The notes: generated by a model not told the origin, from the sequence alone. Positions 21,301-60,041 are shown, numbered from the stretch's first letter. The stretch: 64,000 bases of DNA from Protoeuglena noctilucae (GCA_958009085.1 OY253682.1:1-64000), one strand, 5' to 3'. Numbers and translations: made by a program.

Positions 21301-21717
21301 CCCCGAGGCGTTGGATGCCAGGGAGACGAGCTGGGAGCAGGTGAGGGGGGTGGCAAAAGTGAGGGAGGGAAAGAGGGAGACGATCTGGGAGCAGGTGAGG
21401 GGGTGGTGGGGAGGGGAAGAGGGAGACGAGGTGGGAGCAGATGGGAGGGGAAAGGGGGAATCCACGGGTTGTCACGCCGCACAGCCACCACATCATGCCT
21501 CAGTGTCGCGTGCACGCCCACCTCTGTGCGTCCTCGTCACCCCGCACCGCAGGTGACCCAGGCGACGATGAAGTGGGCGCTGTCCAAGCAGGAGGGGGGC
21601 GCCGCGCTCAGCAGCGGTGTGCTGCAGGCGGTGGAGGACACGGCGGAGCTCAAATCCCTCGTCTCCGCATTCATCGAGAAGGTGGGAGGGGGGGCGACGT
21701 TCCTCAAGGAACTGTGA
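18360..21717 (+). CDS. BBS9: Bardet-Biedl syndrome 9 / PTHB1 BBSome subunit
   Basis: N-terminus MSLFQTKRWW...DQDCL, then VQTMDGQLVFF, VLGERHLFVL, YMGTDPP, RFRVQSD and QFRAVQKRLLVRFKDRNPEPL, all typical of PTHB1. Confidence 0.95.
21321..21450 (+). repeat. Three tandem copies of the BBS9 exon-end/5' splice site
   Basis: gggagacgagctgggagcag|gtgagggg at 21321, gggagacgatctgggagcaggtgagggg at 21375 and gggagacgaggtgggagcagatggg at 21421. Confidence 0.9.
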
Positions 21718-26000: not shown

Positions 26001-27661
26001 CATGGCTGCTTGCTCACCTCCCTCGCCGCACCTGTCTTCGCTCACCCCGCATCTACCACCTCCCCCGCACCCGTGCTTCCACCCGCAGAGCTGCAGTCCG
26101 CCATCCGCCGCGCCCACGCCTTCCTCACCGCATCGCTTCCCTCCCCCGACGCCGTGGGCGTCAACATGAGGGCCGTCACGCCCGGTGCCACCCCCGCTGT
26201 GACGTGGCTGGCCGTGGATTTGAATGACCCCACGGGGACGCCGCGTGCGGCCTTGGTGGAGGCGCTGGAGAAGATCGGCACATCCATGCGGCCCTTCGTG
26301 CCCAGGCGAGCGAGGGACCCTGGCGCATGCGCGGCCAGTCGCGATGCATGCACGGTACCCTTGCGTGCCAAGTCTCTCCTGCCCCGCCAGCAATGTCCAC
26401 TCATGCGTTATATGAACACCTTCCCAGGAGTCTCCCCGACCGCTACCTCTCCCCCGACGCCATGGTGTTCCTCAACATCCCCATGGACGACGAGACCCCC
26501 AGCATGAGGCTCCTGCGACCCCAGGCGCTGCTGCAAGAAGAGGCCATACGGCACTGGGCCCAGACGCTCGCGTACCGGTGAGTGCCGGGGCTTGCATGCA
26601 GGACAGTCGTGGACAGCACGAAACCAGACACACTTCAGTCATGTCATCCCTGCATCCGTCACGCCCTCTCGCAGAGTCGACGTGACATGCATTACCCACC
26701 CTGCGCACATCCCCCACAGCATGACGCTGCCAGCCACACACCATTGTCCCTCATCACCTCCCCCCCACCACATCCCTGCCAGCCACACACCCTTCCCCTC
26801 CTCGCCTCCCTCCCAGCATGACCCTGGCAGCCATACACCCTTGCCATTCTCGCCTCCCCCCCCAGGATGGACTTGGCCGCCGCCCGCAGCGGTGACCCTG
26901 CGAAGGTCGCCGCCGAGCGCCGCCGCTTCCTCCGCGCCCTGGACCCCCTCCTTCGCCACCCCGGGCCCTGCATTCTGGTAACCGACTCCCAGGCCATGGA
27001 CATCGTGCACCCCTGGACTATGAACGAGAGCGGGCAGCCACTGGTGGACATCACGACGTTCTCCATCGCCATGATGCACCGGCAGAGCGGGGGCCAGCTG
27101 TCACTGTTTGCGGATGGTCTGCGGGCGTACCAGGGCCTGCGTGGCCGCGACGCCCGGGTGCTGGTGGCGGAGGCGTGCAACCACAACCGCATCACCGACA
27201 CGTGCAACGACATCGGCATGGTGCAGCTGCCGCAGCAGATAAACAGACACTGCTCGCGGGCCACGGCCGTCGACCACGCCTTCGGGAGGGAGTTCCCGGA
27301 CATGGACGCAGGTGAGAGGGGGGAGTGGGAGTGGTGGGGCATGAGGTGACTGGTATGGTGAGGGGCAGTGGCTGGCGGATGGTGCTACTCTGCAGCTCAG
27401 CCACTCTGTCGCATGTACCCTCTCCTGCATCATGCGTCATCCATTCCCCTCCCCTCCCCCACACCCCCAGGTCTTGGCAAGTACGACCTCGTCCTGCACT
27501 GCGGTGCGTGCATGATCGACCACCAGAAGGTGCGGGCGAGGCTGTCGGACCTGAAAGAGGCTCACGTCCCAGTAACCAACTACGGCCTGCTGCTGGCGTA
27601 CGCGCACCACGGGGAGGGGGCGCTGAAACGGGTACTGGCGCCGTGGGGGGTCAAAGTCTGA
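23076..27661 (+). CDS. HYDEF: [FeFe]-hydrogenase maturase HydE-HydF fusion
   Basis: HydE part: radical-SAM CxxxCxxC (RGIVEFSNVCDCDCYYCGIR), YLIRIETSN, GANILMP and YQLYEGKPCx7CxxC. HydF part: GTPase GSMNAGKS, GTTAD and DTAG, with FeS ligands EACNH...HCGACM. Both lie in one spliced frame. Confidence 0.96.
26711..26880 (+). repeat. About 50-bp tandem repeat x3 in a HYDEF intron, spanning the 3' splice site
   Basis: Units of the form cagcatgac(g/c)ctg(c/g)cagcca(c/t)acacc...ctcgcctccc. Confidence 0.75.
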
Positions 27662-38123: not shown

Positions 38124-41100
38124 TCACCCCCCCTCCCCCATCCCCTGTCCCTCCCCGTGGTCTGCCCCCGCCTGCGCCTTCCTCCTGTTCCAGTGCAGCG
38201 TGTCCCTGACGCTCAGGAACCAGTCGTGAGTCGAGTCCATCTCACAGGCGGCGGGGATGGGGAAGCGCGACAGCTGGACGTGCAGGCTGGGGGGGGGGGG
38301 GGGGGGGGGGGGAGGGAGGGGTGGGAGATGGGGAATGGGAGCTGTGGCGCATGGGTTGTGCAGAGTTTCTCTAGACGGCTCGACAGTACCACCAAGACCA
38401 ACCCCTCTGGTGCATGCCGACCATTGTTACCCAGTCGCTGCCACCCATATCATCTCATCTCATTCCACTTCATCCCATCTCCTCTCCCCTCCGCCCACTC
38501 ACCTGTCCCCCGGCCGCAGCGTCACGCGGTCCCTCCCATCGAACGAGCAGCACCCCTCCCCTCATCTCATCTCATCTTCTCTCATCCCACTTCATCCCCT
38601 CTCCTATCCTCTCCTCACCTGTCCCCCGGCCGCAGCGTCACCCTGTCCCTCCCATCGAACGAGCAGTAGGCCTCCGCCCTGGCATCAGATGGCACCTCCA
38701 CCGTCAGCCGGATGTGGTCGGGGAACACCACGGGGCGGAACGACAGCGAGTGGGGGCAGATGGGCGTGAAGAGGATGCCGGGCACTTCCGGGTGAACCAT
38801 CGAACCACCCGCGGCAAGGCTGTAGGCCGTGGAGCCACTGGGAGGGGAGGGGAGGGGGTGATGGGTTGGTACTTGTTGATGGAGTGGAGATGGCTGGGCG
38901 GCTGGGTGGCTGGGACATTGAGTGAGGATGCGTTGCAGTGTGAGGGACCGTTATCGATGCGCAAAACACCAGTGGCACCGCTTGAGAACGTGCCATGGCA
39001 TGGCGTCATTCACAAATTGTGCTTCTTTCTCATCTACACCCCACACACGCTACGCTCCCCCTGGCTCTCACCTGGGCGTGGCGATGATGAGTCCGTCCCC
39101 CTGCACGCGTGTGACGAATGCCCCGTCGCACTTGGCCACCAGGTTGGTCAGGTAGGGGGTGGGGCCACGATCCAACACCACCTCATTCAACGCCACGTGA
39201 CTTGAAGTGACGGGGGGGTCGTCCACTTCCCCACTTGCACCCACTGCTGCACTTGCACCCCCACCCGCACCCGCACTTGCACCCGCACCCGCACCCCCCC
39301 CAGCCCGCCGTATGGTGGCGTGGATGCGGTGCCGCACCATCATGGGGAATCCGCCTCGCAAGATGCGCTCGAGCACGACCTCAAAAGACTCGAATGGGAA
39401 CGGTGTCATGAATCCCAGTGATCCCATGGCGAAGGACACCATCGGTGGGGCGGGGGCGTCGCGGAAGAGGGAGCAGGTCCAGAGCACTGGGGGTGGGGTG
39501 GGGTTAGGATGAGCGTGTTGATGTGGATGTGATGACAGGGTGTCATGTGGATATGCGCCATAACTGAATCTCATCCTATGGCCACCCTATTTGATCACAG
39601 AAACCCATCATATCCCACCACAACAACACCACCGGTCCCTGCCACGCGTCTGCTCACCCGTGCCATCACCACCCAGCGTGACTGCGACATCGATGTTGTC
39701 GATGACTTCGCGGAAGGGGCGGTCGTCCCCACACTCGCGGCATGCCCATGTCACCAGGCGGCCGGCACTGTCGGGGCACTGGGAGGGGGCAAGACAGGAG
39801 AGGGACTGGGTGCACAGGGGTGCGGAGGCACACGCTGCGTGTACGCAAGCCACCCTGCGATTGTTCCCTCGCATCGTTATCCACTGCACCGCCCACCACT
39901 CCCCATCCATGCCTCACCAGCGTCGCCATCAGCTGCTGCACCATCGCCCGGCTCAGCACGTCCCCCGCCCCCCCTCCTGCCCCATTCCCCTCTCCCACTC
40001 TCCCCGCCGTCTCCCTTGCCATCTCCATGAGCTGCCGGTACGCCTCTGGCTCCACAAACACGATGAGGCCGCGTGCCTTGAGCCACGTGACCACCCGGAG
40101 CATCTGGGCCAGCACGGGGGGGGACTGCTTGGCCACCTGCGTGGTGGGAGGTGGGGTGGGGTGGGGAGGGGCATGTGCGACATGGCATATATGAGTGGCA
40201 TCGTATGCAAGAGTGGCATGCACCATTGGCAACGACCAAAGCCCTGCGTAGCTAAGCTGCTGCGTCATCCCCACGTGCCCTGACACAGTCCCTGTGCCCA
40301 TCCCCCCCGGCACCCCCGCTCACCACCAGGACCGTCTGGGGCTGGTTGATCCACCGCAGCGTCAGGGCGGGGCGCGACATCCCAAGCAGAGGACTGTTGG
40401 CGCTCTCAGGGCCTGCACCCGAATGGCCTGCATGCCAGGGCCAGGCGAGGGAGTGGTTGCGTCACACAGACCCCCACCCTGCATACTAGTTGGGACTAGT
40501 GGGACCACCTAGTGGGACCACCCACCGCCACGCTCGCTGCACCCCCTGCCCCTGCCTACACCCCTCCCTGCCCCACCCCTCACCGCTGTGCACGCTGTCT
40601 TCCCCCGGGGATGCCCTCGCGCACATGGCCGCATCGACCTGGTATGCCACACGCCCCGGCAGCGACGACCGACGGTGCACCTGGCTGCGGCTGTCGTGGG
40701 TGAACCGCGCCCACGCGCGCGCCACCGCGATGGCCTGCGCCGCCGCCGCCGCCACGCCCACCCCCGCGGCTCCGTCGTCCGTCATCGTCACGCTGTGGAG
40801 GGGGTGTGCGCGGCGGGGGGGCGCGTGGCCGTTGTAGAGCTGCATCAGGTCGTCACCGGACATGCGGGCCAGGCTGCTGACGGAGGGGGACGCCTGTGGG
40901 AGTCGAGAAAGCATACTGAGCTTTACACCCACGGTGCCGCATGCGCACGCGCGAGGGCGGGGGCGAGGCGAGTTGCTCTGTCAAATTACGCACCTGCATG
41001 CCCCAGCCCAGTCCCGTGCTGGAGCCCAGGCCCCGGTGCAGCGCCAGACCGGCGTGGGCGACGCCGGCGTGGAGCAAGTTGCTCTCCGACGCGCTCACGG

Positions 41101-41879
41101 CACACCGAGGCTGGGCGGAGGGGGGCAGCGGCGGCTGTGGCGGGGCGCCGGGAGGCTCGGCGCCCCCAGGCACTGCGCGCGTCGCTCCGTCCCCGCCTCC
41201 GCGCAGTCGCCGCGCATCGCCGGGCGACGGGTCAGCGCCGGAGGGGCCCGCAGCCCCGTCTCCCTGCCACGCCTCGGGCCCCCGGCTGTCGCTGCGCCCC
41301 CAGGGGTTGCCCAGAGAGGCGCCGGATGCGGACGGGGCGTCGCAGGCGTCGTCTTCTCCCTCCCGAGCCTTGCCGGGGAGCGGAGGCGTGGGGCCCGGGG
41401 ACGCTCCGGGTTCCAAGGCCGGGCTGCGGGGCCAGGGCGCGAAGAGGTATGCAGGAGCTGCGGGCTGGGCGGCCCGGCGCGGCAGGCTGATGTACAGAGC
41501 GCGACATCATTCCGATAGCAAACTCCTTTGCCTATCCGTCGCGCGCCCCGACCTGTCGAAGCCGAAATTGACGATGGCCAACTCGGATGCGAGGTCGAGG
41601 TCCGGCGGATGGTCGCGCGGCTCATCGCTCCAGCGCGCGCGCTCCTGCTCGTACATCTGCTTCCACATCGCTGCCTCCTGCATCGCCGGAGCGGCGCACA
41701 GCTCCTCGCGCCCCGCACCAACGCCACGACCTTGCTCCTCTCCGCTGCAGCGCAATGCAGTGGCCTCTCGCCTGACGCGCTCGCGCTTCGGACTCCTTCA
41801 GCCTCTGGAAGGTCTCCAGGATTTCCGATACGCGCTCCTCCACCCTGTCTAAGCCATCCTGCCCCATCGCGGAGAGCAT
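38124..41879 (-). CDS. NAD(H) kinase, plant NADK1-like with N-terminal coiled coil
   Basis: [57 protein letters not shown] and LHWN. N-terminal [13 protein letters not shown]. Confidence 0.92.
38450..38666 (-). repeat. About 116-bp tandem duplication of the NADK exon end plus donor site
   Basis: ctcacctgtcccccggccgcagcgtcac...tccctcccatcgaacgagcag occurs at 38498-38550 and at 38614-38666. Confidence 0.92.
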
Positions 41880-43727
41880 GGCCCCGAGGGCCCGCCCTTA
41901 GCGCGTTGGCTCTCCCACGCGCCGGTGAATCAGTCAGCGCGCTCTGAACAGCCGACTCCTGCACATCCATAAAGCGCGGGACGCACGGATGGGACAAAAG
42001 CAGAGTATTGATGGAAGGCGAAGGGTTTCAGCCGTGGGCAAGAGCAACAGGGTCAGCAGAACATTCCCGCGGGCGAAGAGATAGCGTAGAGCCGCCAAAG
42101 GGATAAGCTCAGTACATAAGCCAGCGGGTTCCGGCTCTCTGACAAAGAAACCAGGAACCGACGGCGCCCACGGCCTGCTGGGCTTCCTGACACAGCGACG
42201 ACCCCTCCGCTCCGCATATCGACCGGCCCTGCCTGCGAGGAGCAGCCCGCTCGCCTGCCGGCGCATCGGCGGGAGGTGCTGCTTCGACAAGATGCATGCG
42301 CGGGCGCACGGGGCCTCCTGCCCGCGCGGGTGGGGGCCCAGGTGCGGGCGGCGGGGCAGGGACGGAGAGAGCTTTGACAACGGAGCCGCGCAGGGTGGCG
42401 GGGAGCAGCAGCGGTGTCGCGCCGGTCGCGTGGCGAGGCAAGCGGAGACGCCTGCATCTGCGGCCGCGCGATGGGGCTCCGGAGACGACGGGGGGTCATA
42501 CGGAGCGGGGCGATGAGGGTATCGCGTGACGATGGAGGTCCGGCGGTGGCTGCGCGGCGCGGATGGGGCCGGGAGGCGAGCGTGGACTGTGACCTGCATG
42601 GGTCAACCTCTTAGGGAGCAATGCCGACGGGCCGCTGCCCGGGGAGGCCGAGCGCCGGGACGGCAGTTCCGCCTCCTACATCAGCTCGCGGCCGCGGGGA
42701 GGAGGAGCCGGGAACGAGGGATGGCCCGGTCTGTCGAAGGTGACGGCTTGGGTGGGGGCAGACGCGGCCGTCGGGGACGCGCGTGCGCGGCATTCGATAC
42801 AAGAAAGAGGATGCGGGGCAGGGGGAGGCGCGGCGCGCTGTCGGGTGCGCCTGACAGGGGTGCACCGCTGGGTCGGACAGCTGCTGTAGCCCGGCGGGTG
42901 CTCAAGAGGGGCGGAGGGGCGCGCGCGGCAGGACACAGCGATCATAAGAGCGAACTTGCACACTTGCGCACAGAGCGATATCGAGCGAGCTCGTTCATCT
43001 CGTCGAGGCATCCGAGCAACGATGGCGGCCGACCTGCTCGTCCCAGCCGGTGAGTCGGGGCGCGTGTGGCGAAGTAGTCGCGTGTCCTTTCCGCGGGCCG
43101 GGCGTGCGTAGCCGGGGGGCCACGGGTCGGGGGCCCGGCGGGACGGGCCGCGCGTGCTGAGGGTCTGGGCGGGGCGGGGAGGCAGCGCGGGGTCGTGCGG
43201 TCGTGCGGAGGCTTTTTTGGGGGGCGAAATGAGCAGGGGGGTGGTGCCTGGGAGCGTGGTTGTCCCTCGTTCGGGCACGGAACGTCCTTGAGGGCCGGAG
43301 CGCGGGGCCCGGGACGGCGTCCCTTTGCGCGCGCGGCCCGGTCGGGGGCGCCGCAACGTTGCTAGCATCGTTTTGGGAGGGGAGGGGCCGGCGCGGGGCC
43401 CGCGCCTCGCGGTTTGGGGGCAGGGCCTCCGTTGGTGGGCAGGGTTGGGGCGGGGCCCAGGAAGCGCGCGCGGAGGGCCCGCGGAGGGTCCTGTTTGGAC
43501 GAGGGAGGGGATGGCAGTGTGCGCGGTGGCGTGCTTCGCGGGCCCGGGCGCGGGCGCGGGCGGCCGGGGTCACGGGGGCACGTGGGACGTGCTCCGGCAC
43601 AGCCGCCGCGCGGGGCCTGTTTCGGGGCCCCCGGGCCCGGCGTAGTAGCGGGGTGGCCATTTTGTGCGCTGCGAGGCCATCGTTGCGGCCGGCGGCGGCG
43701 GGGCGGGGAGGATGGTAGCGAGGGTTT

Positions 43728-44939: not shown

Positions 44940-46830
<1,891 letters not shown>

Positions 46831-46997: not shown

Positions 46998-48257
46998 TCA
47001 TTCGTGCTCCACACGCTCCGCGCTCCCTTCCTCAGCTTTGGCCTCGGCCTCGGCATCGCCCTGCGGGGCAGTCGTAATCACACACGCTCGCCAACACGCA
47101 GCAGGCCCCTTGCACAACAGCGCCCGCCAGCACGCTGCGTTCTGACCTGCTCCGCGCTGGGCATGGCGACGTCGTCGTCGGCCCTGGTGGGCTGCCCCAT
47201 GCTGGCCTCGTCCCCCGCTGCGGTCGCTGGGGCAGCACCCTCCTGACCACCATTACCATCACCACCATCACCATTGCCGCCATCACCAGCACCATCACCA
47301 CCACCACCATTCCCATCAACACCGCCATCACCACCATCATCACCGTCGTCCTTGCCACCCGCCCCTGGCAGCGGCTCGGTCTCCTCCCACCGCGCGAGCC
47401 ACACGGGCTTGCCAGCACCACTGCACGCGAGTGACCCACGTGCGCGTCATGCCGCCCATCAAGCAAAGCCCGCTCGCGACGCTCAGCGACCACGCGTGCC
47501 CTCGCCTGGCATCCGTGCTCTGCATGACCCCACGGAAGCGCGAGGACCTCTGCAGGCCCACGACGGCCGCCTCGCCCTGCTGCCACACGGCCTCCATGGC
47601 GTCGAGGAAGTCCTCCCAGCTCAGCGACCCGAATGCCTCTTGCTCTGCGCGGCAGGGGCATGGCCGTTGTCAGGGATGGCAGTGGTCACTTGTGGCGCCC
47701 GTAGCAACCGGTCCAGGAGCGGACAGAGTTGGGTTGCTCCCGCTCCCGTGCAACGCCAAGAGTCATCCAAATCGCCTCCGCTGCCCCCTCACTGAGGTAA
47801 TCGTAGTGGTACGTGTCCAGGGGGAAGTTGAGTTCGTCGCGCTTGGGGCGCTCGGGCCACCTCAGCCGCACGATGGCCAGGTCCACGGCGCGGGCCGCCA
47901 TGGCCGACGTGTCGAACTGGCCCAGCACGACGTCGGAGCCTGCGGGCGCGGGGCTGGGCTGTGGATCGAGTGGTCGGAAGGGGTCCCGACCGCGAGTCGA
48001 GCGCCGGCGTCGCACGCACCCGAGGAGTCGCGCACGGTGGCGGTCCACGAGACGGACCACAGCTCCCTGTGGACGCCCTTGAACGACAGCGGCGGCCGGG
48101 CCGCGCGCGGCGGCTCCTTGCCAGCCTGCGCCGCGGGGGGCTGGGCGGGAGCGGCTACCTTCCTCCGCTTGCGCCGGGCGTCGCCATCCGCGGCCGGAGC
48201 CTCAGCCACCCTCTTCTGCCGACGATCGCCCACGGGGCTCTCGCTGCCGCGTCCCAT
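46998..48257 (-). CDS. AP2-domain transcription factor (one complete and one truncated AP2 domain, Asp/Gly-rich tail)
   Basis: NLS RRKRRK, then FKGVHR...WTATV...LGQFDTSAMAARAVDLA...LNFP, linker LSWEDFLDAM, and a second SSRFRGV...WLAR. Confidence 0.85.
47266..47345 (+). repeat. (CCATCA/CCA)n coding microsatellite encoding a Gly/Asp tract in the AP2 gene
   Basis: accaccattaccatcaccaccatcacc... reads GDGGDGGVDGNGGGG on the minus strand. Confidence 0.8.
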
Positions 48258-48697
48258 GCCTGGCGCGCTTATCCCTCAGCGAGTGCTGGGACCTCCGTTC
48301 AGCCGCGCCGGTGGGCCTTTGCGTGCGATCGACCTGCATTGTGCGGTAAAACATGATTTGTAAGCGCAACGGCTACAAATCGGCCGGACATCGCGCGAAT
48401 CGGCGCTGCCGGGGTCAAAACACATGGCCGCAGAAACGGATGCCGAGCCCCGCGACAGCGCGGCCCTCCTCCAGCAGAGCCAGCGGAATATGGACGCACC
48501 AAGTAAGCGAAGGACGGCGGGCAAAGCCTCAACGCCGGCAGGCAGGTTGTGCTTGGCGCAAAGGGACGCGCACGTGAGATGCCACCCACAATCGGCAGCC
48601 AACGAGAGAGTGCCGTTGCAAATGCGCGTGGGCAAGACCTGACAGCTTCGTGTGTGTGTGCGTCTGCAAACGCACTCTCTGGCACGCACGCACGCAC

Positions 48698-49924
48698 CTA
48701 GGAGGACGGACCCTGCGCCTGCTGTGTCTGCCGGCTGCGGATCGCAGCCCGCTTCACTTGGACCTGGTTGAGCATGTTCTGCACCGCGAGGTCTTGTTTC
48801 CTGCGAGCACAAACGCAGGCCTTTGTGCCCGGCTCACGGACCGCCCCCCCGTCACGCCCAAGCCCCGACATGCATGCACAGCGCCCTTGCCTGAGCGCCA
48901 CCAGCTCCCGCTGCAGCTGGCCGAGGATGCCCTCGTACATGTGGCTGACGCCCTCGGTGCCCTCCTCGCTCGCCCGGCACGCCGCGTCCACCAGGCCAGA
49001 GGCGATCGACACCCCCGGCAGAGGGGCCAGGGGACCTGGGGATGGGGCGAGGGGCAGCCGCTGAGGAGCGGATACTCGTGCGTCCGCGTAAAGTGGGCAG
49101 TCTGGCCTCGCGCGGTCGACTCACGGTAGTGCTGGCTGCCAATGTGGTCCCCCAAGTTGCGGATGCGCACGGGCAGCGGGCGGAACGTGCCGGAGCGGTT
49201 CATGGTCCAGAAGCTGTACTGCCAGTCGAGCACGGAGCCCCCGCTCTGGTCGCCCGTCAGGCACAGGAGCCCAAACACTACGGCCGGCTCCACCCGCGCA
49301 CCCAACTCCTGCAGGTGCAGCGAGGTCACACCTAGGGTGAGATTCGTTATCAATAGTCGTCAGTCGCAATGTCCGGCCCGCTGCGCACCTCGGCTTGCTT
49401 GAGGGAGTTCCAGGGCGAGCGCGACCAGGACGACTCGGCCAGCTTGAGCAGCTCGCGGGTGACGCGGGTCTCGCGCAGCCCCGGCCGCATGGGCGCTTGG
49501 CGACGGAAGCGGAACCACCCGAGGACCGGCTCTGCGTAAGAGGTCGGGAAACGAACGGGCAGTGTACAGTTATGGCGAAGGAGGCGACAGTGCTTGCCCG
49601 TCTTCGCAACAAGCTCCTGCGTGCAGTCGTGGCCAACAACCGCTCCTCACCGGCCCAGGGACTGGCAATCTCCTCCAGCTTGGGCATGTTAAGGACGCCG
49701 GAGGGGGAGTGGAACGATAACGACGACCCGCAGACGCAGCAACCGGTCAAGTATGCCTCGAGCGTGTCGCTGACCTCCTCCACCTCCGCATCGTTGATCT
49801 TCCGCGTGCGCTTCAGGTCCACCTGCCCAAAGAGCATCCCGTCCGTGTCCCCGTCCACCGTCGCCGCCGAACCGCACAGCGAGGCCAGGGTGGCCCCGCT
49901 CATGATGAGCGCGTCGATGTTCAT
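48698..49924 (-). CDS. Abraxas/FAM175 family MPN(-) scaffold (BRISC/BRCA1-A)
   Basis: MSGATLASL...DTDGMLFG...INDAE, SFHSPSG, VLGWFRFRR, RPLPVRIRNLG and a C-terminal coiled coil all match the Abraxas layout. Confidence 0.88.
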
Positions 49925-50208
49925 GGTTGCGCTGCTCTACTCGACACCGGAAAGGGTCCTGTCTGACAACCGACTACAGGATGTGAGTTATCGAGGACCG
50001 CAGACGAGTCTTTGGTAACTTGAAAGCGCCAGTTCCGTGCGCGCGTCGGTGTCAGTGGATGGGGCGGCGGTCCAATCAGCGATTGCGGCTCCCGCACCTC
50101 GGGTAAGACATCTTGCGCTGCATACACAGCTTGCTTGCTCAGCCGCGTTCTGCTGGAGATCTGAAGAACACCTAGCTGCTAAGGGGGGGTTCGCGGCGGA
50201 GGCTCGCC

Positions 50209-51686
50209 ATGGCAGGGCTCCTTTGTCGCACTGCTCGCCTCGCGTGGCTGGGCGCGTGTGCTAGGGGCACGGCTCTGGAGCGCGGTCTGCAGTGCTCTTG
50301 CTCCAGGCCGTCTGAGCAGGTGATGCGGCGCCTGCTCGCTTCCACGGATCGTGTGGATGCGCGCGATGCATCATATGATGCGATGCGTGCCTGCGGTGCC
50401 GTACCTGACTGCTTCACGCGTCGATCTGCGGACAACGTGCATCAATCCCCGGCTGCAGGACTGGGGCGCGCGCATTGGCGCGGCAAGCGGACTGCGGGGT
50501 TTCTCCACTCCACCCCCACCGCGAAAGCCGTTCGCTGTGCGCGGGCGCGAGCCCCGGGAGGGGGAGGACAAGCAGGGGAGGGACCGCGACAGCCTGAAGT
50601 GGGGTGGGCGACACAACGAGGAGGGGGACGACTGGAGCGACCCCAACAGCTTTTTGGGTTTGCTGGACGACAATGACAACTTCGAGAACCCGGTGTGGGG
50701 CAATGAGTTCCGAGAGGTAAGCTGTCCCTCCAAAAAGTCTGCCAATGCATGCAAACATCGATGCACGTCTGCCCGTTCGGGGTGAGACTTGCCACACCAG
50801 TGGGACATCGGCAGCCCGGTCTCCAGCCGCAGGGAGAGACGGGGGTGGCTAGGGAAGAACAGGGCTCCCCAGGACCGGCAACAGATGCCCCAGTGTTGGC
50901 AGACGGGGTTGTTTCAAAGGATGACGAGAAAGGGGCGGCCGAGGGTGCGGAGGAGCGCGTCGAGCTGGCTCTGGGGCTGGCGGGCACTTTCGTCACGCTC
51001 AAAGTGAGACGGCGAGGGCGGCGGTGGCACTGAAGCGGGGCGCCATGCTGGCATGCCTCACGCTCCACGCTATCTGTGGCACCCCTCGCAGAAGTCGTTG
51101 CTCCGGGAGTGTGACCCCGACGCGCTCGAGACGGGGTACGCCTTCAATGGGATGGACAAGGGCGCCATCGCGGCCGTTGACAAGCAGGACGTGGGGGGTA
51201 TTCAGCGTTGGGCGTCGGACAACACGCTCGTGCCGCACTTCAAGTTCACGCTCGGCGTTCCTTACGCCCCCGTGCACTTGTCTCCCTTCCACCGGGGGGA
51301 GCACCTCACGGCCCAGAGCAAGACCCGGCACCTCCCGCAGCTGACGGACAGGGACCGCAAGCCGGCGTCGGACGCGGACATCGAGGAGCTGACGAGTTTC
51401 ACGAATCCCGACTTCCTGAAGCAGGTGCCCTTCCCTGCTGATGCTCCGCACCCACAGCACAATGTAGCAGACGCACAGTTGCGGCCCAACCATTGAAAGG
51501 AAACCATGACCCGCTCCTCGTTCGCAGTTCCTGAGCGAGGAGGGCTACATCATATCGAGGAAGCGGTTCCCGTACCTGCAAAAGAAGGTCCACCGCCGCG
51601 TCGTGCGCAGCATCAAGTCTGCGCGGCAGATGGCCCTGCTCGACATTTTCTCCCGACGGACGGGGGGCGCGGCGGGGTCTGCTTGA
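50209..51686 (+). CDS. Mitochondrial ribosomal protein bS18m with a long N-terminal extension
   Basis: The last exons give FTNPDFLKQ|FLSEEGYIISRKR...VHRRVVRSIKSARQMALL, the S18 signature. N-terminal presequence ends ...GLRGFST. Confidence 0.82.
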
Positions 51687-51873
51687 GGGCGTGCATGAGG
51701 GGTCCTCTGGATGGGGACCCTCAGCTGGTGTGCGGGCCTCACAAACTCGGCGCGCCGTGTCAGTCTGGCGCGCAACGCGTTGCGCCTGAAGCGTGGCCTC
51801 GCATGCAGGTAGCGTATCAGTTGCAGCGTTGAAACACTCACCACTTGGTTTGCGGCGGCGGGCGAGGACGACC

Positions 51874-53459
51874 ATGGCTGCGAAAGTATCTCTGCACCGC
51901 CCCGCCCTGGGGCAGGCCGCCAAGGCCTCTCCGTCTGTGTCGACGCTAAACCGCTCGCACCTGGTCCGGTGAGCTCCCCGGGGTCGCGTGTCGGCGCGTG
52001 CGCGGGTTCGGCGACGAGACCTCCCACTGCGTGCGGAGCAGAGCGTCGCGGCCGTCTCTATTGGCACGAGTGGGCGCATGCGATATCCATTTGATAATCG
52101 CGGCCATCAGAGCGCGCTCTCCGCGTCTGCGCGCGGCGCGTCACGCTCCCTGCCGCTGGTTGATTGGGACCTTCTCCCGGCGCAGGACCCTGGCGCCCTC
52201 CGCGGTCCAGCCGCACCTGGCTCGCAAGGAGCAAAACCTCACCAGCACGGTTGCCCGGGTCGCCACCCAGGCCACGGAGGCGAAGGCGAGCTGCTGGATG
52301 CTTGTGGCCCCGCGTCGCCCCCTCGCCTCTGCCCTCCGCGCCCGTCCCCGCCCGCCCCTCGCGGGCGATCGGTCCATTTGCTGTCGGTGTCGATGGGGCG
52401 CTCGACATCGCGACAGTCGGTGGCCGCCGCGCTCCCCACGGGAGGGGCGGGCGATGCGAAGCGTGCGAGCACTTCCCATCCCCGCCCGCAGTCCGAGTTT
52501 TACGAGGTGACGCTCCCCAAGCCCCTCGGTGTCAAGTTCGCTCGCGGTCGCGATGGCGGGGTGTACATCTCGTCCATTCTGAAAAAGGGCAGCCTCTCGG
52601 ATGAGTTTGAGGTTGGCGACAAGGTGAGGCTCTCCCGCGGAGAGTCGGCCGATGCGACGCGGGAGGCCGATGCTGAGGATTCGAGAGACGCGGCCGTGCG
52701 ACTCCGCCCTCGCAGGTGGTCAAGGTGTCGGCGTCGTTCGGCGGCGATGTTTGGGATGCTCTCAACTACGGGCAGGTCATCTACGCCATCCGGACGCGCA
52801 ACGGGGAGGTGTACATGATGCTGAAGCGCAACTTCGGCGACACTACCATGCTGGAGGTGAGCCGCGGCGGCGCGGCGCGGTGCAGCCCCCTCCGGTCTGT
52901 GTGAAGCTCCGCGGTCCCGATCTCCGCGATTCCGTCCCCGCAGCCCGAGGAGATGGACGAGGCGGAGCGGATGTGGCGCCAGGAGCGCGGCGGGGGCAAC
53001 TACGGCGCGGGGACCAAGGAAATGCAGGAGCGCAACTACACGTCGCGCAAGGAGGAGGAGCGCAAGCGCCGGGAGCTGTTCGACGACGCGCTGGTCAAGT
53101 TCCGCAAGGGGGACGTGGAGGGCGCTCTGATTGACTTCGAGAACGTCATCGGCCTGGAGCCCAAGGGGTTCATCGGGGACGACTTCGCGCGCGTGACGAA
53201 CGTCTACCGGGTGGCGCAGTACAACGTCGCCTGCTGCTACTCGGCGCTCGACCAGCTCGACGCGGGTCTCGAGGCCCTCAACTCGGCGCTGGCCGCGGGG
53301 TTCGAGGATTTCCGGAAGGTGCGCACCGACCCCAACCTGGCCAACCTCCGCAAGTCGCCCGACTTCCTCCGCATCGTGGAGCGGTACGACGAGCCCATCA
53401 TCAACCGCGAGGCCATCGAGGCACTCAAGGGGATCTTCTCCTTCGGCAAGAAGAAGTAA
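51874..53459 (+). CDS. MET1: Thylakoid PDZ/TPR protein MET1 (ZKT)
   Basis: YEVTLPKPLGVKFARGRDGG, SASFGGDVW, GNYGAGTKEMQERNY, YNVACCYS and FEDFRKVRTDPNL. Plastid transit peptide. Confidence 0.92.
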
Positions 53460-54114
53460 ATGACGACGATCGCGTGACGGGACGGGGGTCACGGTCGTGC
53501 GCGCGGAGCGGCCCGTGCGGACGGTGGCCGCGTCACGGGGCTTGGCGACCGGCGCCTCGGTTGAGAGCGTCCCTGTGCGGCCGGGGCCCTGACTGGTTAC
53601 CCCTCAGCCCTGGCCTTGCTTTTCCGTCCTCTTGGCTGCCTGACCCCTGCGCCCAGCGCTTCACTGCAGTCGAGCTGCGGCATCGTGCTCAGCAAGCTCC
53701 CGCCACTCTGCTCTCTCTCTACCTCCTACCCTAGCCATAGCATGGCCCGCGTTGCCGGGGCGGCCTGCGCGTGACGCAGCGGCTGATTGAACGCTGTGGT
53801 GGCCAGCGCAGAGGACGTCGTCCTCGTCCAGCATTTGTGCCAGATACCAGTGGGCCACGCACACACGGCGGTGCAACGCTGCGGGTTCTGCCAGTGCAAT
53901 CCACCCCGTTGCTGGCGCTGGCGTTGAGCCGAGGGTGCACCTCGCCACTGCTACCACGGCCAAACGCGAGCATTGGCTGGCAGAAGCGAGTGCGGTCAAA
54001 GTTCGCTGAGCGCGCCCTTGGATTGTCTCGCGAAAGTGCCAACTCGATTGCCGGCCATCTCGTCCAGCCACTGCAGCCTGCGCGCGATTTGTGCGCCCGG
54101 CGTGTTGGGTGGAG

Positions 54115-57097
54115 ATGCGGAGGAACGGGCCTGTGAATGAGTCCTTTGGGTCCAAGGACCGGAGCTTGAGCTCCGTGAAGGCATCGGGGGGCAAGCTCGT
54201 GGTGAGCCGCCGGGACTGCACGTGTGCTGACCGCGCCGGGCTCTGCGGTAGACGAAGCCGCTCCTTGGAAAGTCCGGCGCAAGGGGAAAGCCGCGGAGCA
54301 TCGTGCGCCGTGCCATCCGCGACGCCGCGGACGGGTGCAGCGCCCGGTGTGCTAGGGCACGGTTCCGACCCCTCCCCAGGTGATTAAGGTCGGGACGTCG
54401 TCGCTCATCCACGAGGAGAACGGGACGCTGAAGCTCTCGGCCATGGCGAGCATCGCCGAGACGCTGCGCACGCTCACCAAGCAGGTGATGGCGGCGGGCG
54501 TTACGCCGGCACTCGTCCTGGCTGTTAGCCTGCATAGCCGGGGGATATGCGCCACGCCGGACTGATGCAGACGCAGCTGCGTAGCCTTCTCAACGCCCGT
54601 CGACCCCCTCTCGCAGGGCCACCGGGTGGTGATCGTGTCATCGGGGGCGGTGGGCGCAGGGTGTCAGCGTCTGGGGATCAAGCATCGCCCCAAGGAACTG
54701 GAGGCAAAGCAGGCTCTCGCGTCTGTGGGGCAGGTTCATCTGATGCGATACTGGTGAGGGTGCTGAGCGAGTAGTGGGTGCCAAGTCACCCGTGACTGCC
54801 TACGATCGGCGAGACTCGTGAGGATACGTCCACCCCACCCCTCTGTCTGTGCTGTGCTTCCTGCAGGGACGACATCCTGTCTGCGAACGGCATCACGTGT
54901 TCCCAGGTGCTGCTGACGGCCAGCAACATGGCCACTCGGTCGCAGTACCTCAACGCCCGGGGGACCTTCCTGCAGCTGCTGAGCCTGGGGGTGGTGCCCA
55001 TTGTCAACGAGAACGACACGGTGGCCGTGGAGGAGCTGAGGTGAGGCTAGCAGTGGTGTCGACGGGAAGCAGATGAGGTGGAGTGCATGGGGGCGGTGGC
55101 CGTGGAGGAGCTCAGGTGAGGCTAGAGGCGGTGGTGTGCCTGCCCATCCATGCATCCATCCTTTGCAGCGTTAACGAGGGGTGTGGCGCTCGTTACCTGA
55201 CCCCAACGCCCCCCTTCCCTTGACGTGGCAGGTACGGTGACAACGACACGCTGTCCGCACAGGTGGCAGCACTGGTCCACGCGGACCTCCTCTTCCTCCT
55301 CACGGACGTGGACGGACTCTACACGGCGAACCCCAACAAAGACCCGGAGGTGAGAGGAACAGTGTTATGATGTGACACAGACACACCAAGGATGGAGGGT
55401 GAGGGGCATCATGTTGTGATACCCAACAAGGACCCGGAGGTGAGGGGCGTGGTTGCATTCTGATGTCACACAAGGGGCGTGGTCGAGTTGTGACACCGGC
55501 ACTCCAGAGGTGGAGGGTGAGGGTGAGGGTGATGGTATTGTCGTGATACCAAACAAGGACTGAGAGTGATGGTGAGGGTGAGGGTGACGACCGCGCACAT
55601 AGCCGCCCCCTCGTCTCCCATCCCCAGGCCCGCCGCATCCCCGAGGTGTGGGACATCGGCGCATTGGCGGACGTGGACACAAGCACGTCGGGGACGGAGT
55701 GGGGGACGGGCGGCATGGCCACGAAGCTGACGGCGGCGCGGATCGCCACGGCTGCGGGGTGCAGCGTGGTCATCTGTCACTCTAAGAGACCTGAGGACAT
55801 CGAGAGGGCCATCCGGTGAGCCACTGAAGAGACCAGAACATCCCAAGCGACCGTGGCATTGGCTGTGAAGGAGTGCATATGTGCACTGGTGGGTCGCATG
55901 AGGGTGGAAAGTCTAGGAGCGTGCGTGCATGGGAGCTGGGTTGCGAAGACAGTGTTCATGGATCGAAGACTGATTGCCGCCAAATCATCACCGGTCCTAC
56001 ATCCCTTGTTCCCGCGCAGGGGCGAGAGTGTGGGTACGCTTTTCCACGCCATGAAGCACCAACTCAAGGGCAGCCGGCGGTGGGTGCTGGCCGTGGTGAG
56101 TCGATGCGCACAGCCACATGGCCATTGGTGCACACTCGACGCAGGCCATCGGCACTAGCTGATCATATTGCGCGCACTTGATGCGCGCCCATCACAACAC
56201 ACCCCGTACCCCTCTAACGCTACACACCCTGTGTACCCCATGTCTCTCACCGCAGCCAACAAGGGCCGCCTGGTCATCGCCACACGCATATCAGCACAAA
56301 TCCCATAACACCCCCCCCCCCCCCCCCTTTCCCAACCCCCACCGCAGCCCACCAAGGGTCGGCTGGTCATTGACGACGGTGCCGTCCGTGCCGTGGTGGT
56401 CAAGCGCAAGTCCCTCTTCGCGGCGGGGATCGTGGCCGTCCACGGCACCTTCAACGCACACGACGCCGTCAGGTGAGGGACAGATGATGGAGATGCTATG
56501 GTGTGGCAGTGCGATGAGGTGAGGGGCTGTCAGTGTGGCTACTCCGATGCGGATCCAATCTCACTCTGGGCATCTGTCTTTCTTCGTTGACTCTTCTCCG
56601 ACACCCACCCTACTGCCCCTCACTTAACACAGCATCGTGGACAAGGCGGGCCACGAGGTGGCGCGGTGCCTGGTCAACTTCGCCTCTGCCGACCTGGACC
56701 GCGTGAAGGGCCAGGGATCGCGGGAGATGCGGCGGCTGCTGGGCTTCAACGGGCCGGAGGAAGTGGCGCAGAGGGACCGCATATCGTGCGTGCGGATGGG
56801 GGGCGGGGGCGGTGGGACGGGCAGCGAGACGTCCGATGTGGAGGACAGCAGCCCTCAGCAGTCGCGGCCGGGGAGCAGCATGGCGCAGGGGGGGGAGACG
56901 CCGGTGAGATGGGGGGCATGGGGGATGGCATGGGGTTAGTGTAAGATGGTATGGCGAGGCATGCGGCGGTGGCACTGCGATGGCATGCGTTTCTGATTGG
57001 TGGTGCCAGACCTGTCCCATTTTTTCACTGCAACTCGCTCCGCTGCCCCTCGCAGGGACGGGGATGTACGCCCGCGCCTGATGCGCACGCGACGTGA
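54115..57097 (+). CDS. proB: Glutamate 5-kinase (ProB) with C-terminal PUA domain
   Basis: [41 protein letters not shown] and [11 protein letters not shown] domain [10 protein letters not shown]...SLFAAGI. Confidence 0.94.
55020..56374 (+). repeat. Multiple splice-junction duplications in proB introns
   Basis: Pairs at 55020-55050 and 55095-55125, 55332-55354 and 55423-55445, and 56248-56279 and 56340-56372. Confidence 0.88.
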
Positions 57098-57278
57098 CGA
57101 CATGTGGCGCAAGGGCTGGCTGTGCAACACACACACTTTTGGCCAGTGAATCTCGGTACTAGTGAACAGGACGCGGCGTGGATAGGCGCGGCGCGTGATT
57201 GAACGAGTGACGCCACTGCCGGCATCAAAGCCACGCAGCCATGCACGCAGCACGCGCACTCTCCACTCTGCGCCGCCT

Positions 57279-60041
57279 TCAGCCTCCCCCGCCCTGGGGC
57301 CACACGACCTCGAAATCGCAGACGAGGCTAATGTGGTCCGATCCCCACACGGTGTTGGGCAGCCCGCACTCGAGCGACTCGAGGGGAGGGGGCAGGAGCA
57401 CCCGGAGGGGCCTGGGAGCGGACGAGAGGGCGGGGGAAGAGCGGTGGGTCAGATGCCGCGCACGCCACAGAGTCTCTACTCTCATCTCATGCTACCCTAA
57501 AGTGTCAGTGATGTACACCGGCACATCCTCTTTCTCCGCACCTGAGCACCGCAGGCCCTCTCCCCGGTCGCCCCGCCTGCACAGAGGTCCCCGCCTCCGC
57601 CTCCGCCCCGCCGCTGCAAACGATGCCAGCGTCGTGCTCCGGGCCGGGACTGACCCTCTCCGGCGTGCGTGGGCCGGACTTCCGGTGTCCCTGCCGCCCT
57701 TGCGACCCACCCGTGCCCCCTACCCCCGCCCCGCCCCCGCCCCGGTCGCCCTGACGGACATTGGCATCGGTAACACGGTCACCGGGCTCCAGGGTGGCCC
57801 ACAGATAGTCGACCGTGCCGATGAACTGCGCATGGCAGCTCGTGTACAGCGGCTCCTCTCCCAGCACAGCGCTGTACGTCGACGCCACTCTCAGTGGGTG
57901 CTCCGCCACCCCTGCCTCCTCCGCCCCCGCCCCGCACGCGCTCTCCACATGCTCCGCAGCCCAGTCGCCACTTAAGGGCGACCCCCAGGGCGCGGCCAGC
58001 CCCACCCCCGCACCCGTGCCCACCGCATGCAACAGTGCACTGTGGGCCCCACCCCCGCCCATCACCCCACCGCCGTCCCACTCGGCCCGATGCAGCCGCC
58101 ACTCCCCAGCAGGCCCCACCCCAGCGCCACGTGCACCCCAGCTGCCGTCCGCCCACGACGCAGGCCCGTCAGGCCCCGGGTAAGGCGAGCCCGGGGTCCC
58201 TGATCGGGACTGCCCCGCCCCCGCCCCATACACTGGCACCACCTCGCGCACCCGATGGTGGGATTGGTGCGGGTGGGGCGACCGGGGCGGCGGCTGCGGT
58301 GGTGGGGACGCGTAAGAGGGGCCGCCCCCCTGCCGAATGTGCTGCACGAGCGGCCGCAGCACGTTTGTCACTCCCCACGGCCACCCCTGCCGCTCCACCT
58401 GCCCCGACATGGTTCGCCTGCGGAGGTGGGACACAGGGGTGCCGCGTCAGGTGCCTGGCTTGGATGGGCTAGGCATGAGCTGAGCGTGGGGTGCATATGG
58501 GCGCACGCTTGCATGCGCACTGCACCTGGACAGTCCCGCGAGTGCCAGGCGCCCCTCCCCCGCGAAGTGGTGCACGGCGCTGCCTGGCGTGGAGTTGAAG
58601 TCTCCCATGACCATGGCGGGGCATCCCCCGTGCTCTGCCCGCAGCTGTGACACGAGAGACATGAGCTCACGCACCTGGCCCACCTTGATGTCACCCCTGG
58701 GAGAGACGACGAGGAGCTTAGTAGGAAAGGGTGATATGAGCATGAGGAGGGGTGCTGGCGGTGGCACGTGCATGCAACAGACAGCGTGGCTGTCGATAGA
58801 TGGCCGTTCCAGTCACGCTTAGCGCAGCTGCATGTGAAGCGTGCCTGGCAAGCCCAGGTAGCACCCCCCGAGCCCCAGCTGAGCTCCCGGTCACCTCTTG
58901 GGGTTGAAGAGCACGTGGGTGTTGCCCACGACGAGGTCGTGGGCGCACGTGCCACCCACGCTCCTCAGCACTACGACGAGAGCTGCATTGTCCTTGAGGC
59001 CCATCAACTCATACTGGATGGCGCGGCGCTCCACGGCGGCGAAGCGGCCCTTGCGCCAAAACGTGGCGCAGCCATCCCCCCGCGACTGACCCCTGCGCAA
59101 GTAGCACCCCTGCAGCAGGGGCGGTGCCAATGTCGCACTCTCGTCCCAACACTCCCCCACCTCTCTGTCACGCACACCACGAGTGCGATGCGCCATGCTG
59201 TGATAGCAGGGGCTCTCGCCTGGTATCCCATGGCAGCCATGTCCCTGAATGCCTCCTCAAACGCCTCCACCTCCTGGCAACACACCACGTCCGGTCGCAA
59301 ATGCCTTATCTCCCTCGCGATGCTGCCCCAGCGGCGATTCCAGTCCAGCAGCGCGTGCGGGACCGAACTGCGAGACGGGAGCGCGAAATGTGAGGCGGTG
59401 ACAGGGGCCCGGACGGCGCGGGCGTATGCGTGAGCGGCAGGGACGGCCACTCGCTTGTACAAGTAACGGTGCTCCTGGGCCAGGTCTCCCCCGAGGATGT
59501 TGTACGACATCACACGGAATCGGCTCGCGTGGCTCTCCACCTCCGCCTTGTCGCCTGCGCTCCACGGATAGACGCTCAAGCCCCGCCCTGCGAGCAAGGA
59601 GCGGTGCCGGCGTAGCCGCGTGCGCGGGCACCGAGACCTTCTGCGCATTGAAGAGTATCGAGAGGCATCGTGCTGGCGCGCATCGCTTCGCGCGACGCCA
59701 GCGCGCCGCACCCGAGAGGAAGTGGCCGTAAGTGTCGAGGTCGGCCTGCTCGGCCGCGGGACGGTCGCGGACCCCGGCTCCCACGCGCTCTGCCCACATC
59801 CGCAGGAAAGAAGGACGGAGGCGGGAGTGGTCATGCGAAAACCTGCGCGGGGGAGCGGGAATCCATCGGCATCCCTGCAACGCCCCTCGCTGCGCCGCGG
59901 TTTCTGCGTCTGCTGCCGCCAGCGTTGCCCTCACGTGCACGAGGACCCATAGGTGCAGCGCCCTTGCATGTAGTGCAAGCAGATGAGGCCCCCCTTCCTC
60001 CCGGCGCCGCCCGCGACCTTGCGCTTGAGCTCCCCACTCAT
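57279..60041 (-). CDS. Angel/CCR4-family EEP phosphoesterase with an N-terminal CCCH zinc finger
   Basis: VMSYNIL, CCQEVE, GDGCATFW, NTHVLFNPKR|GDIKVGQ, MGDFNS, TVDYLW and GSDHISL. Exons 1-2 give C-LHYMQGR-C-TYGSS-C-TFS-H. Confidence 0.88.

Follow-up and report, generated by a model that had tools for sequence, protein, structure and literature searches.

Three introns of a predicted glutamate 5-kinase (proB-type) gene of the green alga Protoeuglena noctilucae contain second copies of their own splice junctions. The gene lies in a 64,000-nucleotide stretch of DNA (GCA_958009085.1 OY253682.1:1-64000), which was analyzed over its full length and is termed here the window. Each second copy, termed an echo, repeats the end of the adjoining exon together with its splice signal, and is located inside the neighboring intron. 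Judged by their sequence, they represent the second members of short tandem duplications, in which a unit of ~37-127 bp extends across a splice junction. We consider it probable, at roughly three chances in four, that they are by-products of ordinary duplications of this kind, that they are neutral, and that the outer splice site is the one in use. No new kind of element or mechanism is indicated.

Three proB junctions recur in the adjoining introns

An earlier note on this DNA had claimed that three proB junctions are copied again within the adjoining introns. All three copies were located where the note had placed them, at offsets of 75, 90 and 92-93 bases, and their similarity to the live junctions is far above chance (Table 1). 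In intron 4, positions 55019-55050 and 55094-55125 are identical at 31 of 32 bases (offset 75), or at 36 of 40 when the alignment is lengthened. The single difference within the 22 exon-derived bases, at position 55038, pairs CTG in the exon with CTC in the echo. The first echo in intron 5 is similarly close, with 22 of 23 bases identical between 55332-55354 and 55422-55444 (offset 90) and with AAA in the exon corresponding to AAG in the echo at 55340. Two more mismatches (AAC versus ATA) are found directly upstream of this match.

The third echo is that of an acceptor. Positions 56248-56277 align with 56340-56370, which include the live acceptor and the first 23 bases of exon 8, at an offset of 92-93. 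The 31 columns of this alignment comprise 27 identities, three mismatches and one 1-base gap. In this pair, the exon/echo differences GGT/GGC, CGG/CGC and ATT/ATC are synonymous, the last of them lying immediately past the match, and ACC/AAC is non-synonymous.

A chance origin of the echoes is ruled out by two kinds of control. Nine direct repeats at offsets of 25-250 are present in the window, versus 0, 0, 0, 0 and 1 in the five control ranges at far offsets. The proB echoes give scores of 29, 20 and 17, versus at most 11 when the same junction probes are applied to the other 22 known introns. Among at least 67 introns predicted in the window, scores above 11 are limited to the known echoes and one misplaced intronic repeat. 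These introns were predicted with a crude, self-trained coding hidden Markov model that recovered six of the ten modeled proB exons, missed the NAD kinase intron described below and misplaced a donor at 19431, and their number is a lower bound.

Table 1. Positions in the window of the proB gene, its duplicated junctions and the duplicated junctions of two other genes.
Feature	Position	Strand	Remarks
Glutamate 5-kinase (proB-type) gene	54115..57081	+	exon model: 10 exons, 9 introns of 113-278 nt; last exon uncertain
Live exon 4/intron 4 junction, first repeat copy	55019..55058	+	exon 4 ends at 55040
Possible older, decayed middle copy of 37-bp unit	55056..55093	+	~21/37 identical bases, counted by eye
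Intron-4 donor echo	55094..55133	+	donor CAG/GTGAGG intact
Live exon 5/intron 5 junction, first unit of array filling intron 5	55328..55358	+	exon 5 ends at 55349
Intron-5 donor echo 1	55418..55448	+	donor GAG/GTGAGG intact
GAGGGT/GGTGAG hexamer runs in intron 5	55513..55587	+	
Intron-5 echo 2	55545..55575	+	decayed, donor destroyed
Intron-7 acceptor echo	56248..56277	+	CACCGCAG intact
Live intron 7/exon 8 junction	56340..56372	+	exon 8 starts at 56348
BBS9/PTHB1-like gene (Pfam), donor junction with two echoes	21320..21449	+	live exon ends at 21340
NAD kinase gene (Pfam), duplicated 116-nt unit	38435..38672	-	live exon ends at 38619; echo donor at 38503

Layout of the duplicated units

At five junctions, those of proB and of two further genes in the window, the first unit spans the exon-intron boundary. 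The exon-derived parts measure 22, 19-22, 25, 21 and 48 bases, and each is accompanied by the splice signal. Homology that runs head to tail over the whole unit is seen in intron 5 of proB and in the NAD kinase gene, is weak in intron 7 and is partial in intron 4. In intron 5, the first unit (U1, 55328-55417) aligns over its whole length with the second (U2, 55418-55544), and a third unit comes next. The intron-7 acceptor echo is part of a unit of ~93-110 nt, for which the alignment is weak but continuous through the C-rich intron end. The intron-derived parts of the copies differ by 14-20% and contain insertions or deletions (indels).

Seven GGTGAG sites, including the live donor at 55349, are clustered at intron 5. 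At the hexamer runs of this intron, the contigs of two sequencing runs switch to sites elsewhere in the window (38840 and 39504). Therefore, the GGTGAG/GAGGGT motif recurs at several loci in the window.

Splice signals and reading-frame consequences

The echoes carry splice signals that are as good as those of the live junctions. In the four donor pairs, the live and echo 9-mers are GAGGTGAGG and CAGGTGAGG, GAGGTGAGA and GAGGTGAGG, CAGGTGAGG and CAGGTGAGG, and CAGGTGAGG and CAGGTGAGT, respectively, such that each echo donor equals the live donor or is closer to consensus. The acceptor, CACCGCAG, is identical in the live and echo copies.

Use of most of these sites is predicted to be destructive. 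Splicing at the intron-4 echo donor would add 75 nt and an immediate stop codon, and splicing at the intron-5 echo donor would add 90 nt, with a stop after six codons. The NAD kinase echo donor would likewise lead to an immediate stop codon, and splicing at the intron-7 echo acceptor would insert 92 nt, with a resulting frameshift. The BBS9-like echo donor would add 54 nt (21341-21394) that remain in frame without a stop, or 18 extra residues; a longer isoform of this protein is therefore conceivable. Four of the five cases would thus end in a stop or a frameshift, although the echo donors match the live ones in strength. A working enzyme therefore depends on splicing at the donor that comes first or the acceptor that comes last, and this choice must reflect position, not strength. 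Splicing at the outer site would presumably be exclusive.

Duplications elsewhere in the window

The echoes in the BBS9-like and NAD kinase genes were obtained from an unbiased scan of the window for direct repeats. In the BBS9-like gene, the echo at +54 has an intact donor, and in the echo at +100 the GT has been changed to AT (21440). The NAD kinase unit comprises the last 48 bases of the exon plus the donor, and its two copies lie head to tail and can be aligned throughout. They differ at 2 of 48 positions in the exon-derived part, and have ~86% identity and two indels in the intron-derived part. Constraint on one of the two exon-derived copies would be expected to leave the exon part less diverged.

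Other duplications in the window are unconnected to any junction. Wholly intronic duplications are found at 19419 (offset 57), 26717/26774 (offsets 97/48), 33896 (offset 37) and 55443 (offset 30). A perfect 24-nt tandem duplication, corresponding to eight codons in frame, occurs at 5240-5287 inside a predicted minus-strand coding segment (4669-5877). Junction-spanning cases thus account for five of the 8-9 duplication loci. By our own arithmetic, if units of 75-116 bp were placed at random around introns of 190-280 nt, over half of the tolerated duplications would cross a junction. The observed share is about that expected of random placement and intronic and exonic cases exist; therefore, no junction-specific process is needed. 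The earlier note had proposed a recurrent process of junction duplication or intron growth. Recurrence is borne out by the two other genes and by the presence of echoes in three of the four longest proB introns, but the specificity for junctions is not.

At 26715-26865, three copies of a 48-97-nt unit are located immediately upstream of an acceptor (~26865). The start of this unit weakly resembles the start of the downstream exon, and the unit may be an old acceptor echo.

Synonymous differences between exon and echo

The feature of the echoes that had been stressed in the earlier note is that they differ from the exons mostly at synonymous positions, with the C- or G-ending codon in the echo. 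This description is accurate for the five third-position differences in proB, but it omits one non-synonymous difference, one indel and three edge mismatches. The proB tally is thus five synonymous differences, one non-synonymous difference and one indel. The NAD kinase pair adds two synonymous differences (AGG versus CGC, both in one Arg codon) and no non-synonymous ones, and the BBS9-like gene adds no synonymous differences and two non-synonymous ones (AGC versus ATC and AGG). Within the matched exon-derived parts, the total is seven synonymous and three non-synonymous differences; with the three edge mismatches added, the synonymous share is 7/13.

If the echo decayed at random, a synonymous share of 0.24 would be expected, and 7 of 10 gives P = 0.003. 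However, the premise that a neutral copy mutates at random positions, on which the earlier note had relied, does not hold for a comparison of this kind. The live exon can be the source of half of the differences, and there a change persists only if it is silent. When the model is corrected for this fact, the expected share rises to 0.39 and the observed value becomes borderline (P = 0.049). The proB sample is also a selected one, in that the gene was flagged for the synonymous pattern itself, and in the two genes outside the earlier note the share is 2/4. We therefore attribute most of the synonymous skew to purifying selection on the live copy of the exon, with contributions from the smallness of the sample and from how the matches were selected. 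A tally based on self-alignment of exon ends, which the note had suggested for the whole genome, was approximated here within the 64-kb window. It gives a raised synonymous share overall, at the borderline P value just given, and reveals no excess of duplications at junctions.

Orthologs by which the differences might be polarized were sought by searching metagenome contigs with a degenerate pattern of the start of exon 8. The search yielded 29 loci, all of them bacterial, with a GC content of 0.37-0.57, and none was usable. Only one of them (L017) has a match at the nucleotide level, and it is a bacterial ispG-proB stretch with no introns. At the site of the Thr/Asn difference in exon 8, the 64 homologs matched by motif search (of 120) have mostly Val, with Thr in two and Asn in none. 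This distribution is a weak hint that the Asn of the echo may be the derived state.

Origin of the echoes and alternative explanations

The following series of events could produce the observed arrangement. Replication slippage or unequal exchange probably duplicates units of ~37-127 bp at the low-complexity ends of introns, which are G-rich at the 5' end and C-rich at the 3' end. Whenever a unit crosses a junction, two copies of the exon end and of the splice signal would be created. If the spliceosome takes the outermost signal (the first of the donors, or the last of the acceptors), then the mRNA would be unaltered. Therefore, such duplications would be tolerated, and the intron would be lengthened while the echo decays. 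We infer both this mechanism and the neutrality of its products, and the junction copies are probably harmless. Decay is supported by older copies that are without a donor, such as those at 21440 and near 55560. Nonspecific duplication is supported by the occurrence of junction echoes in three unrelated genes, and by similar events away from junctions.

Several observations weigh against this explanation. The synonymous share of 7/10 is still somewhat high under the corrected model. The echo has C at six of the seven synonymous differences, and such a direction is outside what simple duplication and decay predict. At three of the five proB sites, the exon has a rare A- or T-ending codon in a gene whose GC content at third codon positions is 0.88, and one of these codons is the sole AAA among 19 Lys codons. 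In intron 4, only ~45 positions of the presumed 75-base unit can be aligned. For this region (55019-55134), Tandem Repeats Finder reports a period of 37 with 3.2 copies and 65% matches, and intron 4 is the only one of the junction arrays that it reports. Together with the possible middle copy (Table 1), this suggests that intron 4 underwent more than one round of duplication, or that a single tandem duplication was later reworked. The echoes are also clustered, being present in three of nine proB introns versus none of 14 RNA-supported introns of neighboring genes. Finally, no proB joint is present among the 15 of 48 splice joints listed, where RNA coverage of proB is thin (depth ~5, from three metatranscriptome runs). 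One RNA contig over 55302-55662 is unspliced across intron 5.

The echoes might instead be working parts of splicing control that are kept by selection. They could serve as decoy or alternative sites that give unproductive transcripts, or as U1-binding, G-rich enhancers that help to define short GC-rich introns. G-rich motifs in introns can act as splicing enhancers, and introns 4 and 5 are dense in GGTGAG-like units, as is most evident from the cluster at intron 5. Moreover, the young echo donors are intact and match or exceed the live sites in their resemblance to consensus, and the BBS9-like echo would contribute 18 open codons in frame. However, older copies have lost their donors, the 14 RNA-supported introns that are free of echoes belong to well-expressed neighboring genes, and use of four of the five echoes would destroy the protein. 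A role in splicing control is therefore unlikely.

We regard it as equally unlikely that the synonymous skew is real beyond the effect of purifying selection. Such a skew might arise if the live exon end was pushed to diverge at silent sites from an echo that retained the ancestral codons, if the two copies came from diverged coding alleles through unequal crossing-over, or if these copies were under coding constraint for a time. Both P values given above would favor a real skew, as would the NAD kinase pair, in which the only difference consists of two changes within one Arg codon, the prevalence of C in the echoes, and the rare A- or T-ending codons of the exon at three of the five proB sites. 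Against these points stand the selected sample, the even split in the independently found genes, the fact that both BBS9-like differences are non-synonymous, and the drop to 7/13 when the edges are counted. Diverged alleles in particular are difficult to reconcile with the 14-20% difference and the indels in the intron-derived parts, which are far beyond what is found between alleles of one population. Furthermore, four runs that were compared, from culture and from the sea, show zero differing letters.

A more specific proposal, to which we give slightly less credence still, is that each echo preserves, as a fossil, the exon end that existed when the duplication occurred. On this view, a live exon end beside its own copy would evolve with unusual speed at silent sites, and in a single direction, away from C-ending codons. 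The cause might be either selection that helps the spliceosome to distinguish the authentic site from its duplicate, or a mutational effect exerted locally by the repeat. If this were true, junction echoes would constitute a built-in outgroup for the study of silent-site evolution and of splice-site discrimination in P. noctilucae.

Although short repeats in GC-rich, low-complexity DNA are prone to errors of assembly, a wrongly expanded repeat is extremely improbable here, because the copies differ from each other and hence are not collapsed or expanded identical repeats, and because the stretch is supported by independent data. An independently built 29-kb contig from a culture run (X1) matches 47354-58000 with no differing letters and no gaps, which makes misassembly unlikely, and a contig of the same run shows no differences over the NAD kinase locus (38330-42199). 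The stretch is recovered nearly completely (share of 0.96-1.00) in culture runs and marine metagenome runs of two studies. In marine metatranscriptomes of a third study, the share is 0.28-0.37.

The proB gene and the surrounding window

The closest proteins to the predicted proB product are green-algal glutamate 5-kinases, with 58-84% identity, and full-length algal homologs have an AA_kinase and a PUA domain. In the P. noctilucae gene, AA_kinase (PF00696) is matched by exon 4 (E = 1.3e-4) and exon 6 (E = 2.7e-3), with both matches under the gathering score because exons were scanned singly. PUA (PF01472) is matched by exon 8 (E = 2.4e-10), and the domain starts at the live intron 7/exon 8 junction. 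The predicted order is thus AA_kinase followed by PUA, and proB is a fair name for the gene. Its introns start with GTGAG in eight of nine cases and with GTGAT in the other, and all nine end with CAG. The introns that bear echoes (4, 5 and 7) are 191, 278 and 252 nt long. In a metatranscriptome contig of run X11, similarity is confined to the conserved kinase motif on the two sides (54997-55019, and 55235 onward), and 24 other letters lie between the matches. We read this contig as an intron-free mRNA that encodes the enzyme in a different organism, and not as a splice variant.

The window is GC-rich (0.62-0.74 per 2 kb). Positions 1-245 are a telomere-type array of CCCTAA, with CCTAA variants toward its inner end; therefore, the window begins at a chromosome end. 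Short introns that begin with GTGAG or GCGAG and end with CAG are abundant across the window, and the first half of the introns is rich in G and the second half in C. Four of the 14 RNA-supported introns (45872-45984, 46112-46261, 46439-46590 and 52286-52491) start with GC (GCGAG or GCAAG) instead of GT, which is a high share of GC-AG introns. Sense-strand homopolymers of C are found near acceptors, on the upstream side, as in proB intron 7 (17 C at 56311-56327) and the NAD kinase intron (~30 C at 38287-38320).

Implications and comparison with known systems

If the echoes are by-products of ordinary duplication, they provide a snapshot of how short introns grow through tolerated small tandem duplications at their ends, with the outer site kept in use. 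Each echo retains 19-48 exon-derived bases, and a genome-wide set could thus be used to date the events and to compare silent change in live and dead copies.

Some marine algae have introner elements, which are transposon-like introns. The P. noctilucae case is similar in that it concerns a marine alga with many short introns that have repeats inside them. Unlike introners, the echoes copy the adjoining exon end of their own gene. A dispersed introner family was considered and rejected, because junction probes score at most 11 on the other 22 introns versus 17-29 for the local echoes. In the part of the open-access literature that was searched, no description of such echoes in green algae came to light.

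Intron gain by tandem duplication of an exonic AG/GT proto-splice site, and intron sliding, have been described (Lehmann et al. 2010, BMC Evol Biol 10:156, PMC2891723). That model shares with the P. noctilucae case local duplications that are rescued by splicing, duplicated signals that are raw material for a shifted or new border, and premature stops in the duplicate. In that model, however, the duplicated segment is purely exonic and the new intron is the duplication itself, whereas the units described here already hold a junction plus intron sequence and the position of the intron is unmoved. Gain from a proto-splice site was also rejected on the basis of size, since the introns have 191-278 nt versus 75-127 nt for the units, and the remainder of each intron is without an exon match.

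The structure fits the class of minisatellites that span an exon-intron boundary. In intron 7 of human F7, the first unit of a 37-bp minisatellite spans the boundary, and use of the upstream donor according to a 5'-to-3' scanning rule was shown experimentally (Borensztajn et al. 2006, PLoS Genet 2:e138, PMC1557585). The same source lists similar human cases in IFI6 ("6-16") intron 2, CBS intron 13, LMNB2 and PDGF intron 4. In both systems, an authentic donor is followed in the intron by identical or nearly identical pseudo-donors of equal strength, and the most upstream donor must be used, as is judged for P. noctilucae from sequence. The sizes of the units are also alike, with 37-100 bp in the human cases and 37-127 bp here. 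In contrast to the human arrays of 5-25 identical units, two or three diverging copies are found per locus in P. noctilucae. The exon-derived part has 19-48 bases versus four in F7, and hence codons can be compared. An acceptor is involved in one case, and several loci are present inside 64 kb of a green alga. The window thus supplies natural instances of two identical donors in a row, with which the first-site rule of human F7 could be tested in a green alga with short introns.

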